Origin: Saprospiraceae bacterium
GTDB taxonomy: Bacteria > Bacteroidota > Bacteroidia > Chitinophagales > Saprospiraceae
Direction: 5' to 3'
Assembly (NCBI GenBank): GCA_022841745.1
Contig: JALHQW010000069.1
Span: 8,353 to 32,352, forward strand
Length of the DNA: 24,000 nucleotides
Position numbers and translations under genes: made by a program. Positions 11,317 through 19,065 of this stretch are shown here, in pieces. The notes beneath the pieces are model-generated. The model saw only the letters and a list, made by a program, of their open reading frames with translations, was not told the origin of the DNA and did no database searches. Each line of letters starts with the position of its first letter. The stretch's first letter is position 1.

Positions 11317-12681
11317 ATGAAAGCAAGCGCCGAGGCCGTACCAACTCATCACACTACCTCCGGGCACCAGTTTTTCGGTGCTACGCAACAGCCTGGCGCT
11401 GCGTTTTTCAGCCCGGCCACTATCCAGCCCAAGCTGACCATCGGCGCCCCCGACGACCAGTACGAAAAAGAAGCCGACGCCATGGGCGAGCGGGTGGTGC
11501 AGATGTCTTCGATGTTTTCCGCAAGTGGCGGCAACACGCCGGGCATCCAGCGCCAATGCAGCGCCTGTGCCGCCGAGGAGCAGTTGCAAACCAAGCCCGA
11601 CTTGCAAAAAATGGGTGAGGAGGAGGAAGAGGAAATGGTGCAAACCAAGCCTGATATCCAACTGAAATGCGCCGCTTGCGCAGCAGAGGAGGAAGACCAG
11701 GTGCAGATGAAATCCGCAGGTGGCGAGTCCACGGCCAGCCCCGACCTGGCCAGCAAGCTCTCAGCCAAAAGCGGCAGCGGCCAGCCCCTCCCCGCCGATA
11801 CCCAGGCACTGATGGGCCATGCCATCGGTGCGGACTTCTCCGCCGTGCGGGTGCATACGGACAGCGATGCCATCCAAATGAACCGGGAACTGAGCGCCCA
11901 TGCTTTTACACACGGGCGGGATGTGTATTTCAATGCGGGGAAATATGATACAGGCTCAACGGAGGGGAGGAGGTTGCTGGGGCATGAGCTGGGGCATGTG
12001 GTGCAGCAGGGTAATGTTGAAGAAAAAAAACTCCAAATGAAGGTTGAACAAAGCCATGCAAGGTGTTTTAGTTATAACCCTACTTTTCCCATATTTACAG
12101 CCATTGGCACTGACCCTGTAGGTGCCTTAGCTATAATGCAAGCCGCAGATGCAAGGGCTATTGAATTGCTGACGAATACGATTGATGAATTAACATCTTT
12201 ACAAGCTCGAATTCAAGGAGGGGAACCACCCGCTGTGCCAACTTTTTCAGCATGTTTGGCTCAAAGCATGCAAATTAAACTTAGAGTTAACCCTACTGAT
12301 ATAAATTCATGGACTGGAAATGGGCCTAATACGGTCAATAGAATTATCAAAATCTACTCAAATCTTAGAGCGCAATTTCAAGGGGGGTTTGTTAGGTACA
12401 ATTGTTTGGGCAGGGATTGTGAAGATGGTGAAAGAGCGTATGTATACCTAGGACAAGGGTATCTTATAAATTTATGCCGCCCATATTGGAGGGATTTAGG
12501 TGTAGACGACAGGGGCTTGGTTTTGATTCATGAATTAGCTCATCATTACTATGGCACTGAGGATCATGGTTTTACTGGTTTAGGTGCATCCCATTGTCTC
12601 GACCATTTTATTGCAGACACGAATGGACTACCCCATCGAAATCCAGATGCCTGCAAAAATAATTTAATGACAGATTGTTAA
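11317..12681 (+). CDS. DUF4157 (eCIS-associated zincin-like HExxH) protein with a C-terminal aspzincin/M35-like metalloprotease domain; putative eCIS cargo toxin
   Basis: The N-terminal module is FFSPATIQPKLTIGAPDDQYEKEADAMGERVVQM ... ALMGHAIGADFSAVRVHTDSDA...HAFTHGRDVYFNAGKY...LLGHELGHVVQQG, with HELGH at 11983-11997. This is the DUF4157 signature. The C-terminal domain is YNCLGRDCEDGERAYVYLGQGYLINLCRPYW...LVLIHELAHHYYGTEDHGF, with a second HExxH at 12529-12543 and GTxD at 12553-12564. Confidence 0.8.
   Translation: MKASAEAVPTHHTTSGHQFFGATQQPGAAFFSPATIQPKLTIGAPDDQYEKEADAMGERVVQMSSMFSASGGNTPGIQRQCSACAAEEQLQTKPDLQKMGEEEEEEMVQTKPDIQLKCAACAAEEEDQVQMKSAGGESTASPDLASKLSAKSGSGQPLPADTQALMGHAIGADFSAVRVHTDSDAIQMNRELSAHAFTHGRDVYFNAGKYDTGSTEGRRLLGHELGHVVQQGNVEEKKLQMKVEQSHARCFSYNPTFPIFTAIGTDPVGALAIMQAADARAIELLTNTIDELTSLQARIQGGEPPAVPTFSACLAQSMQIKLRVNPTDINSWTGNGPNTVNRIIKIYSNLRAQFQGGFVRYNCLGRDCEDGERAYVYLGQGYLINLCRPYWRDLGVDDRGLVLIHELAHHYYGTEDHGFTGLGASHCLDHFIADTNGLPHRNPDACKNNLMTDC
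11413..12012 (+). repeat. Copy A of a ~600-nt direct repeat (the conserved DUF4157 5' module) shared with 17461-18015
   Basis: Hand alignment of 11413-11472 against 17461-17520 gives 51/60 identical, and all 9 differences are synonymous. Similarity continues by eye to the codons for GHVVQQG and then stops abruptly. Copy A has ~45 extra nt encoding a second CxxC-acidic unit. Confidence 0.85.
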
Positions 12682-12782
12682 CCAATGTGAATCCATTTAT
12701 CAACATAATATCAGCACGCAGGGTATAATTACCCGTATATTTTTATATCCAATGAGCAGCAATCATCTATTTTTCACTCATT

Positions 12783-12824
12783 GCCATCCAACCCAAGCTG
12801 ACCATCGGCGCCCCCGACGACCAG
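12783..12824 (+). pseudogene. Orphan fragment of the DUF4157 5' module (encodes AIQPKLTIGAPDDQ) with no start codon and a stop 9 codons downstream
   Basis: 12786-12824 (atccaacccaagctgaccatcggcgcccccgacgaccag) is 38/39 identical to 11422-11460 of the upstream DUF4157 gene. An in-frame TGA lies upstream at 12753-12755. The reading frame ends ...PHLRTKTP*. Confidence 0.85.
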
Positions 12825-12913
12825 CCCCATCTAAGGACCAAAACACCATGAAACTACCTATAAGATATTAACCAATAAACCCCCTATTTTCATCACCATA
12901 AACCAAAAAAAAA

Positions 12914-17141: not shown

Positions 17142-17217
17142 AATAATTCGTAACTACTTAGGAGGGCATAGGAGGAGAGGAGGGAATTTCATTTTTCTCT
17201 CGCCTCCCACACCTTTG

Positions 17218-17259
17218 TTTTTTTTGGGGTGAAATTGAAAATCTTCACCCCAAAAAAAA
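17218..17259. terminator. Perfect 16-bp-stem hairpin (T8-GGGGTGAA / loop attgaaaatc / TTCACCCC-A8); possible terminator or RNA processing site, but non-canonical
   Basis: TTTTTTTTGGGGTGAA (17218-17233) and TTCACCCCAAAAAAAA (17244-17259) are exact reverse complements. The T-tract is 5' and the A-tract is 3' of the GC core. No U-tract therefore follows the hairpin in either transcription direction, and the terminator call is tentative. Confidence 0.4.
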
Positions 17260-17337
17260 CCTGCTAAATAGTCACGATAATTCAACCTTGCATGGCAATT
17301 TGCCCTATATTGGTTTTTGATTTAAAATGACGTGGCG

Positions 17338-19065
17338 ATGAAAGCAGATGCACCGAAGTCAATCAGCGCTTCCCAGGTAGTACAACCCTCCCAGCCTTTC
17401 TTCCAACAGGCTGGAGGTGGTGCTTTTTTCTCCGCACATGCTACCCCCAGCCATTTTGGCCCAGCCACCATTCAGCCAAAATTGACCATCGGCGCCCCCG
17501 ATGACCAATACGAAAAAGAGGCCGACGCCATTGGCGAGCGGGTGGTGCAGATGTCCTCAATGTTTTCTGCTGCTGGTAGTAATCCTAATCAAGTACAAAC
17601 CAAGCCCGACTTGCAAAAAATGGGCGAGGAGGAAGAAGAAATGGTGCAAACCAAGCCCGATATTCAACTGAAATGCGTCGCCTGCCAAGACGAGGAGGAA
17701 CAAGTGCAGATGAAATCCACTGGCGGTGAATCCACCGCCAGCCCCGACCTGGCAAGCAAGCTCTCCGCAAAAAGAGGCGGCGGCCAGCCCCTTCCCGCCG
17801 ATACCCAAGCCCTGATGGGCCATGCCATCGGTGCCGACTTCTCCGCCGTGCGGGTACACACGGACAGCGACGCCATCCAGATGAACCGACAATTGAGCGC
17901 CCACGCCTTTACGCACGGACGGGATGTGTATTTCAATGCAGGGAAGTACGAGCCGGGGACGACGGAGGGGAAGCGGTTGTTGGGGCATGAGCTGGGGCAT
18001 GTGGTACAGCAGGGGGGCGGGGAAAAAATAATTCAGAGAGCAGAAAATGATACAAAAGTTAATGCTGGCAATTTATTAGATTCAGAAGATGATATTAATA
18101 ACTACGTAAATAAGATATTGGGTGAAGCGAGAACCAATTCGACGAATATAGGAGATAGATTAAATTACATTTATTCCAAATTGGGTAAAAATACTTCTTT
18201 GGGGCGTACAGCTATTGAGGATTGGGTAAATGAGAAACTTGATGGTTCAAAAATATACCAGCCCAAAGAGGAAACGACCAAATACTCTGGTGTTTCAAAT
18301 AATGTTTCAATGCTTGGTCGTGGAAAGATTTGGAAACAACCTTTTTTCCCCATTCTCAACCCAACAATTAAAGTAAATGGAATCTTAATTGGAAGTGATA
18401 AGTTGGGACATTTTTTTCAACAAGGATTTGAATATTTCGCAATCGCCTATGTTGAAGCAAAGGGAAAATCTGCTGCTGAAAAATATGGCCAAAAAACCGA
18501 AGCTGAATGGTTTGGGCTAGAAACTACTGGTGTTTATTCGAATGCAGATTTAACAGCTAACGCAAAAGGGATGAATTTTTATTCGGATTTCATAACCAAT
18601 CCTAATATTGTTTTCGATATTTCTTCTTACATTGGTAAGGAGTGGAATGAAATTTTTAATCCCAATGTTTATTCTCAAGAGGTTGGCGAAGTGGTTTGGA
18701 AAAATTTAATGCAACGAGCTACAAACGGCTACATGACCGATATTAACTTCGACTCACTTCTTTTAATGCCTATCAAACCTTTATTGCAAGTAAATGGCAA
18801 TGAAATAAAGGGTATGCTTACTTATAATAGCCCTAAAAAACAAAAGGGAACTATAAAAATTGATATAGATGGTGTTATTAATTACAATAAGCAAAAGGAT
18901 CTAGCTGCAATTTATGGTGTAAATATTATCCTAAATTGGACAAGTGGAACCAAGTCAGGGACAGGAACTTTGGAATCATATGGTGAAAATAAAATAGCGG
19001 GTTTATTGTTTGAAAAAAATAACGCAAATACTACTAATTTTTTTGAAATTAGAATTCTTTTATGA
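17338..19065 (+). CDS. DUF4157 (zincin-like HExxH) protein with an unrelated, AT-rich ~350-aa C-terminal domain of unknown family; putative eCIS cargo toxin
   Basis: It has the same N-terminal module as 11317-12681 (PATIQPKLTIGAPDDQYEKEADAIGERVVQM ... LLGHELGHVVQQG, HELGH at 17986-18000). After 18015 the sequence is unrelated and AT-rich (15/60 GC at 18061-18120 against 40/60 at 17821-17880). ATG 17338 (MKADAPKS, compare MKASAEAV in the paralogue) is preferred over GTG 17332. Confidence 0.8.
   Translation: MKADAPKSISASQVVQPSQPFFQQAGGGAFFSAHATPSHFGPATIQPKLTIGAPDDQYEKEADAIGERVVQMSSMFSAAGSNPNQVQTKPDLQKMGEEEEEMVQTKPDIQLKCVACQDEEEQVQMKSTGGESTASPDLASKLSAKRGGGQPLPADTQALMGHAIGADFSAVRVHTDSDAIQMNRQLSAHAFTHGRDVYFNAGKYEPGTTEGKRLLGHELGHVVQQGGGEKIIQRAENDTKVNAGNLLDSEDDINNYVNKILGEARTNSTNIGDRLNYIYSKLGKNTSLGRTAIEDWVNEKLDGSKIYQPKEETTKYSGVSNNVSMLGRGKIWKQPFFPILNPTIKVNGILIGSDKLGHFFQQGFEYFAIAYVEAKGKSAAEKYGQKTEAEWFGLETTGVYSNADLTANAKGMNFYSDFITNPNIVFDISSYIGKEWNEIFNPNVYSQEVGEVVWKNLMQRATNGYMTDINFDSLLLMPIKPLLQVNGNEIKGMLTYNSPKKQKGTIKIDIDGVINYNKQKDLAAIYGVNIILNWTSGTKSGTGTLESYGENKIAGLLFEKNNANTTNFFEIRILL
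17461..18015 (+). repeat. Copy B of the DUF4157 5'-module direct repeat (pairs with 11413-12012)
   Basis: See copy A. The two copies are direct repeats whose starts lie ~6 kb apart. They bracket the M35-like domain, the orphan fragment, the KAP gene and the S8-LTD gene. Confidence 0.85.

Follow-up and report, generated by a model that had tools for sequence, protein, structure and literature searches.

The stretch of DNA analyzed here, which we call the window, comprises 24,000 nucleotides (nt) from a Saprospiraceae bacterium (GenBank assembly GCA_022841745.1, contig JALHQW010000069.1, positions 8,353 to 32,352 of the forward strand) and contains part of the gene cluster of an extracellular contractile injection system (eCIS). 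Its focus is a pair of genes, A and B, which begin with the same module, centered on a DUF4157 domain, and end in C-terminal domains of different kinds. Only one large gene of the window, a truncated DUF5916 gene (22889-23986), lies on the minus strand; all the others are on the plus strand. The two genes, their parts and the two eCIS genes that delimit their neighborhood are as follows:

9753-11243, plus strand: tape measure gene of the contractile injection system (PF19268, CIS_TMP, E = 2e-127), the upstream edge of the payload region
11317-12681, plus strand: gene A (454 amino acids), with an FF leader, the shared module with DUF4157 and an M35 aspzincin-like C-terminal domain
11413-12012, plus strand: shared module, copy A, with the IQPKLTIGAPDDQYEKEAD helix, an acidic/CxxC linker and the DUF4157 core closing with HELGHVVQQG
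12013-12681, plus strand: C-terminal domain (tail) of A, AT-rich, with a second HExxH (HELAH, 12529-12543) followed by GTED
17338-19065, plus strand: gene B (575 amino acids), with an FF leader, the shared module and an uncharacterized C-terminal domain
17461-18015, plus strand: shared module, copy B, delimited by BLASTN and codon alignment with copy A
18016-19065, plus strand: C-terminal domain (tail) of B, AT-rich, with a helical domain bearing GSDKLGHFF and a lipocalin/GID4-like beta-barrel
21266-22720, plus strand: AAA+ ATPase gene of the Afp15/Pvc15/Alg15 type (PF00004, E = 1e-28), the downstream edge of the payload region

Both A and B are thus encoded within an eCIS cluster, with the CIS_TMP gene upstream and the AAA+ ATPase gene downstream. 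Among 34 related loci from GTDB genomes, a homologue of the tape measure gene is present in 22 and one of the AAA+ ATPase gene in 19; the homologues of the latter, which are 46-56% identical, come after DUF4157 genes. The order of tape measure gene, at least one DUF4157 gene and AAA+ ATPase gene is kept in all nine of these 34 loci that were inspected. Conversely, none of the 34 was found to contain tail A, tail B, the genes for a KAP-family NTPase and an S8 subtilase that separate A from B in the window, or the two open reading frames (ORFs) that follow B, orf332 and orf384. Hence, given the gene order and the variable content among related loci, we place A and B in the variable payload region of the eCIS.

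The similarity of the two genes is confined to the module. A BLASTN comparison of the gene A region with the gene B region pairs 11411-12011 with 17459-18014 in one alignment (E = 3.7e-166), the sole further match being one of 40 nt that involves an orphan fragment discussed below. An earlier note on this DNA had the two copies aligning throughout; this stands insofar as the BLASTN alignment is continuous, and has to be amended insofar as it is gapped, with 13 codons of A (11539-11577) missing from B in addition to two single-codon indels. The codon alignment spans 185 codons with 85.9% nucleotide and 90.8% amino-acid identity, and a local protein alignment finds the front parts of A and B, i.e., everything ahead of the tails, to be 84% identical. 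The differences comprise 57.5 synonymous and 20.5 non-synonymous changes, corresponding to a synonymous divergence (dS) of 0.71, a non-synonymous divergence (dN) of 0.049 and a dN/dS of 0.069; the synonymous excess has a binomial P of 3e-22. In the first 60 nt of the module alone, the codon alignment bears out the nine differences counted earlier, all of them synonymous. The module is under purifying selection on the strength of these values, just as the earlier note had it.

In terms of domain content, PF13699 (formerly DUF4157 and now termed the eCIS core domain) is recovered in gene A at residues 157-233 (E = 2e-29, 101.7 bits) and in gene B (E = 2e-30, 105.5 bits), against a Pfam cutoff of 22 bits. 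The HExxHxxQ signature closes the domain in both genes as HELGHVVQQG, and the helix ahead of it follows the consensus IQPKLTIGxPxDxYExEAD. Across the family, the HExxHxxQQ codons are the most conserved short stretch, as seen in 262 sequences that were themselves picked by the pattern HE..H..QQ, such that the invariance of H, E, H, Q and Q among them holds by construction.

A separate observation concerns the linker of the module: the extra 13-codon unit of A (11539-11577, PGIQRQCSACAAE), which contributes IQRQCSACAAE and is missing from B, is a second Q-x-K/Q-C-x-x-C-acidic repeat. Thus, linker length varies by whole repeat units.

Right after HELGHVVQQG the similarity stops, as had been proposed from inspection of the sequence: pairwise alignment by BLASTN finds nothing in the 3' parts, and the C-terminal parts of the two proteins are unrelated (BLASTP E = 0.59). 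The change in composition claimed alongside also holds, the G+C counts of 20 and 15 in 60 nt within the tails of A and B, respectively, and of 40 in 60 nt within module B proving exact on recounting. The GC content of third codon positions (GC3) is 0.64-0.69 in the structural genes, 0.74 in module A and 0.68 in module B, as against 0.29 in tail A, 0.26 in tail B and 0.27 in orf332. The maximum-likelihood change point in GC3 is nt 12009 for gene A and nt 18021 for gene B; both have a log-likelihood ratio near 42 and lie at most two codons from the break in homology. Because GC3 shifts by 0.4 within one reading frame, the 3' parts are best explained as being foreign in origin. The exact sequence that A and B have in common at the junction amounts to 25 nt only.

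Immediately beyond the junction lies a further recurrent feature. Family-wide, HExxHxxQQ is followed by a short G/S-rich stretch and then by a hydrophobic-Q-R/K motif (12013-12050 in A and 18016-18050 in B; residues ~226-238), behind which A235, E236 and D238 (A-E-x-D) are invariant in the family of B. As this motif sits inside the variable AT-rich part, each tail would bring its own copy of it. It may represent the missing third zinc ligand of the domain or a site of self-cleavage.

The tails belong to two different families. That of A matches Aspzincin_M35 (PF14521) at residues 337-420 (E = 1e-9, 39 bits against a cutoff of 30) and, in a sequence search of the PDB, the toxic endopeptidase AsaP1 of Aeromonas (2x3a, E = 4e-4). 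Protein searches, made against a database of 5.8 billion sequences with at most 120 matches listed per search, returned homologues that retain the domain at 48-57% identity (P0001-P0006), and the HExxH...TxD motif, which takes the form HELAH...GTED in A, is conserved in P0001-P0003. The tail of B defines a family of 233 homologues that is without a Pfam annotation; of the 120 listed, almost all are proteins of 440-610 amino acids in which the tail is joined to PF13699, and they come from several phyla, with representatives in Chitinophagaceae, Blastocatellia, Gemmatimonas, Enterovibrio, Grimontia, Sulfurirhabdus, cyanobacteria and others. Its invariant positions include GSDKLGHFF, S401, D404 and N408.

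An AlphaFold2 model of gene B, built with 76 sequences, has a mean predicted local distance difference test score (pLDDT) of 83 and displays a helix (residues 57-78), followed by the DUF4157 core (~131-226), then a helical domain (242-460) and finally an eight-stranded barrel (463-574). Residues 1-45, 89-105 and 117-130 have a pLDDT below 50, which is a proxy for disorder only. On structure comparison, only the barrel finds neighbors, namely lipocalin and GID4 folds with weak E-values. No significant match came from searching the PDB with a profile of the B family, and neither PADLOC nor NCBIfam has a match for tail B, orf332 or orf384.

Ahead of the module, both genes carry a leader of the form PFF, 7-9 residues, FFS and then FF(S/G)P (11317-11412 in A and 17338-17460 in B). 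In the search with gene A, the same leader is seen in 59 of the 83 matches bearing KLxIG among the 120 listed. It also bears on where B begins: the ATG at 17338 opens the frame together with a GTG at 17332, and the database copy of the gene (P0007, 527 amino acids) is called from an internal TTG (MTIGAPDD...; window 17332-17484). P0007 is therefore without the conserved FF leader, and the ATG at 17338 agrees better with the homologues as the start of B than the internal TTG does.

Comparison with relatives makes it clear that front parts group by genome and tails by family. The best foreign front part among the matches listed is 61% identical to that of A or B and is joined to an unrelated tail, whereas the closest tail homologues listed (48-57% identical for A and 44-49% for B) bear fronts just 32-57% identical to those of the window. 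This conflict in identity implies separate histories for front and tail. By module, the nearest relatives are from Haliscomenobacter and other Saprospiraceae genomes at only ~50% amino-acid identity; protein-guided locus searches found no module above 50% identity in GTDB genomes or JGI metagenomes, and a scan with a degenerate 39-mer gave no match in JGI metagenomes or IMG/VR. Likewise, no contig was retrieved when A, B and P0007 were looked up by exact sequence.

The presence of several DUF4157 genes in a locus is the rule, with the fronts within a locus usually being 41-73% identical and the tails always unrelated. The most telling case is locus L035, on a 4.5-Mb contig of JGI sample 3300060733, where four tandem DUF4157 genes (2655-12154) combine fronts that are 72-98% identical in protein with unrelated tails. 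Across the six possible pairs, the nucleotide sequences are 69-95% identical as far as the QQ codons, after which identity drops to ~0.2-0.6 within 30 nt; the fronts have a GC3 of 0.46 and the tails one of 0.30. A decrease in GC3 of 0.2-0.4 between front and tail recurs in the Saprospiraceae/Haliscomenobacter loci L001, L003, L004 and L006, as well as in L035, and was not seen in the low-GC Bacteroidota lineages compared. That the drop is confined to the GC-richer lineages suggests that the tails circulate from a mostly AT-rich shared pool. From the conflict in grouping and the identical break at QQ in L035, we infer, in lieu of an observed event, that tails were exchanged at the HExxHxxQQ junction over evolutionary time.

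As an aside, behind every one of the L035 genes there is a small ORF whose product has a lipoprotein-type signal sequence; these ORFs are candidate immunity genes.

The organization of A and B has already been published for the DUF4157 family (PMC3482391, PMC8213781, PMC8894135). Zhang et al. 2012 (PMC3482391, section 13) named the domain PVC-metallopeptidase, pointed out that a genome can hold several such genes and that immunity genes are frequently lacking, and proposed that these proteins evolve by recombination as polymorphic toxins do. Geller et al. 2021 (PMC8213781) showed DUF4157 to be a core domain specific to eCIS (odds ratio 2614) and positioned N-terminal to toxin domains. In AlgoCIS, the N-terminal regions of the cargos Cgo1 and Cgo2 are disordered and resemble each other, DUF4157 is central and the C-terminal domains differ, and both proteins fill the lumen of the tube; the tail of Cgo1, a predicted metalloprotease, contains a second HExxH, and the toxicity of Cgo1 is independent of the HExxH motifs (Xu et al. 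2022, PMC8894135). A 2026 preprint on AlgoCIS (10.64898/2026.05.27.728243) reports that loading needs the N-terminal region, with DUF4157 being dispensable, that N-terminal regions are alike within a system and not between systems, and that the AAA+ ATPase has a role in loading. In Streptomyces, a DUF4157 protein binds proteins of the spike complex (PMC13277306).

Against this backdrop, we consider it quite probable that A and B are eCIS cargo genes of the DUF4157/PVC-metallopeptidase class, with conserved resident fronts and foreign AT-rich payload tails joined at HExxHxxQQ. Briefly, we advance the following mechanism. The front part, comprising the FF-rich lineage-specific leader, the helix, the acidic CxxC linker and the zincin-like DUF4157 domain, would act as a system-matched 'address and handling' module. 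By extrapolation from the AlgoCIS and Streptomyces work, it is presumably recognized by the AAA+ ATPase encoded at 21266-22720, the presumed cargo loader, together with the tube or spike. Such recognition by the loading machinery is, we propose, the reason for a near-constant front protein (dN/dS 0.07) in the face of silent drift (dS 0.71). The tails would be the payloads, namely an M35 aspzincin-like protease in A and a widespread domain in B, derived from AT-rich donors and fused, in frame and by rare recombination, with resident modules at the HExxHxxQQ codons. The join might have come about by two routes: either a foreign tail was captured, or the front was replaced on an imported full-length gene.

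Like Cgo1 and Cgo2, A and B are two Bacteroidota eCIS cargo genes with similar N-termini and DUF4157, different tails and an AAA+ ATPase gene in the cluster; gene A further resembles Cgo1 in architecture through the second HExxH of its predicted metalloprotease tail. Unlike the AlgoCIS pair, A and B are predicted cargos and are split by the KAP NTPase and S8 subtilase genes, and tail B (349 amino acids) is, judging by size, of another family than that of Cgo2 (~1000 amino acids). With the PVC-metallopeptidase toxins, for which autoproteolytic release by the domain has been proposed (PMC3482391), they have in common a constant HExxHxxQ zincin-like front, variable tails, several genes and the frequent lack of an adjacent immunity gene; to that description A and B add breakpoints at the nucleotide level and a shift in composition at the junction.

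Comparable features mark the Rhs and CdiA proteins, in which a conserved short junction motif (PxxxxDPxGL and VENN, respectively) precedes AT-rich variable tails and paralogues have unrelated tails. However, in contrast to these, no cognate immunity gene was identified behind A or B, and there are no silent cassettes of tail plus immunity gene with a 3' piece of the constant part, the only orphan in the window being a 39-nt piece from the 5' end of the module. Delivery, too, differs, being by the eCIS here and by type V or type VI secretion systems in the case of Rhs and CdiA. As with the eCIS-associated toxins (EATs) in the accounts of PMC8213781 and PMC11297309, the genes lie on the 3' side of the operon, where neighbors without DUF4157 can be effectors; neither tail is among the EATs named in the relevant parts of PMC8213781 and Danov et al. 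2024 (PMC11297309). The layout that the earlier note had likened to polymorphic toxins, i.e., a constant N-terminal part that evolves under purifying selection, followed by C-terminal domains unrelated to one another, thus holds up and is found in the payload region of an eCIS. The pair is a fresh example of a design already described and is neither a genetic switch nor a new mechanism.

Several points weigh against this interpretation. First, full-length architectures combining DUF4157 with M35 and with the B tail are both old and widespread; therefore, the fronts of imported genes could have been replaced, instead of bare tails having been captured. Second, barrel aside, tail B matches no known fold or activity in the structure comparison or the PDB profile search. 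Third, no immunity-like gene was found behind A, the interval 12682-12913 being without an ORF. Fourth, the window is a metagenome-assembled contig, and no close relative of the source genome was found in GTDB genomes, JGI metagenomes or IMG/VR. The sole other assembly covering part of it, the separately assembled Logan contig L039, is 100% identical to 18798-24000 and hence no independent strain; it appears to come from the same sample. Finally, the loading, toxicity and processing of A and B are predicted by analogy, and the direction and mechanism of the recombination are likewise inferred.

Of the other explanations, the one that fares best, though we regard it as unlikely, is that the similarity of the fronts is kept mainly by gene conversion between paralogues, i.e., concerted evolution, instead of purifying selection. 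It would account for fronts being closer within than between genomes (84-91% for the window pair, 72-98% in L035 and 41-73% in other loci), and a nearly perfect match between the orphan fragment and copy A is in keeping with it. However, the synonymous divergence of A and B is high and even, with no long identical tract, and the strong synonymous excess is a signature of selection and not of homogenization. Recent gene conversion between A and B in particular was considered and rejected, no tract having been found.

Considerably less probable is the proposal of the earlier note that the two direct repeats constitute a working switch, by which frequent RecA-mediated deletion or exchange reassorts cargo within the population. 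The repeats are indeed direct, ~555-600 nt in length and 6.0 kb apart (their starts being separated by 6048 nt and their ends by 6003 nt, in agreement with the spacing of about 6 kb given in the earlier note), and the orphan fragment shows that DNA has been copied locally. Nevertheless, the copies have diverged by 14%, and their dS of 0.71 means that they have long been separate; RecA-dependent exchange is lowered by orders of magnitude at divergence of this kind. Seven identical runs of at least 20 nt exist; the longest measures 29 nt, a length expected by chance (permutation P = 0.62). Every 60-nt window contains 5-11 mismatches, an even spread that gives no sign of a recent exchange tract. 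Nor is a recombinase present among the window ORFs of at least 250 amino acids (13 listed, of which the 12 plausible ones were scanned with Pfam, four without any match). Gene B is not a silent cassette: it is complete, with its own leader and start, behind a probable terminator hairpin. The ~6-kb deletion envisaged between the repeats, which was to fuse module A to the tail of B, would yield only a B-like gene, tail A and the KAP and S8 genes having been removed irreversibly and no new cargo gained. The claim that the repeats make the cargo repertoire switchable is not supported.

A third alternative, which we hold to be very improbable, is that the mosaic is an assembly artefact, with DNA of GC-rich and AT-rich organisms having been joined at the conserved HExxHxxQQ. 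The metagenomic origin of the contig and the location of the junction in the most conserved sequence that the family has would favor such an error. Yet, it would require four composition switches on one contig, all of them in frame; the 25-nt exact sequence at the junction is too short for the usual k-mers of assemblers; the Logan assembly reproduces its part of the window exactly, including the return from AT-rich to GC-rich DNA near 20060; and the GC3 pattern of front and tail recurs in the 4.5-Mb contig of L035 and in four Saprospiraceae genomes. Finally, plain tandem duplication, after which the 3' halves would have diverged rapidly without any input of foreign DNA, has next to no probability despite A and B being near neighbors on one strand: it is refuted by the membership of the tails in two different widespread families (M35-like in A, and in B one with 233 homologues across several phyla), by their lack of detectable mutual similarity in BLASTP, and by the fall of GC3 by ~0.4 exactly at the junction.

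Returning to A and B as cargo genes with resident fronts and foreign tails, a more general version of the idea can be put forward, albeit as a tentative one to which we give somewhat less than even weight. To elaborate, HExxHxxQQ might be a family-wide in-frame junction analogous to VENN and PxxxxDPxGL, at which tails from an AT-rich pool would be joined to lineage-specific loading modules; the incoming cassette would bring the post-QQ segment that completes the zincin-like domain or is cut by it; the FF-x7-FFS leader would be a loading tag of Bacteroidota eCIS that also marks orf332 and orf384; and the orphan fragment would be a scar of exchange.

The interest of the pair lies in several directions: (i) it would be an unusually clean natural example of payload renewal, in which a resident front is retained and foreign tails are attached to it at a single codon position; (ii) the QQ junction and the FF leader could provide rules for delimiting loading sequences and placing payload fusions in the engineering of Bacteroidota eCIS; (iii) a new effector activity could reasonably be sought in the B-tail family, whose members are nearly always found joined to DUF4157; (iv) the FF leader might help predict cargos that are without DUF4157.

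The remaining features of the window are the following:

121-9711, plus strand: three large genes with no Pfam match or only generic ones
12786-12824, plus strand: orphan 39-nt fragment of the module start, encoding IQPKLTIGAPDDQ, non-coding, with sharp edges and no in-frame start codon
12914-14995, plus strand: KAP-family P-loop NTPase gene (PF07693, E = 3e-27), not part of the cargo pair
14979-17141, plus strand: S8 subtilase gene (PF00082, E = 1e-38) with a lamin-tail domain (PF00932)
17216-17258, no strand assigned: hairpin GGGGTGAA...TTCACCCC flanked by a T-run and an A-run, a probable terminator at the boundary between the S8 gene and gene B
19062-20060, plus strand: orf332, no Pfam match, candidate third cargo
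20084-21238, plus strand: orf384, probable start at ATG 20096 (380 amino acids), no Pfam match, possible cargo

The orphan fragment sits in the AT-rich DNA that separates gene A from the KAP gene and is identical to A (11422-11460) at 38 of 39 positions, as against 33 of 39 for B. It is probably a scar left by recombination or deletion, from a gene start that was lost or displaced. The KAP and S8 genes that follow are missing from all the related eCIS loci and hence probably represent an inserted two-gene block. With the KAP NTPase showing weak matches to QatA and PDC-S20, this block is possibly defense-related. Downstream of it, the strong, terminator-like hairpin was read directly from the sequence; a scan for sigma-70 promoters and terminators yielded nothing informative and overlooked this hairpin because its loop exceeds 8 nt.

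The two ORFs between gene B and the AAA+ ATPase gene, neither of which has the DUF4157 module, are drawn into the picture by the leader that they share with A and B: it stands at the head of orf332 and, in a reduced form (PPFFGPAT), in orf384. We accordingly regard both as candidate cargos without DUF4157, with two further features adding to the case for orf332. One is its linker, MIQRFAENDE, which resembles the IIQRAENDT found just past the module in B and has 12 identical nucleotides. The other is the position of P0241, which, apart from the database copy of orf332 itself, is its only homologue: P0241 lies directly behind the tape measure gene in locus L040 and has a similar leader.

The layout of orf332 may be described as the leader, the post-module linker (IQRFAEND) and a tail, with the module missing; by composition, it lies in one AT-rich block with the tail of B. 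A role for orf332 as the immunity gene of B was considered and rejected, given that its leader is of the cargo type and that its only homologue adjoins a tape measure gene and not a B-type gene.

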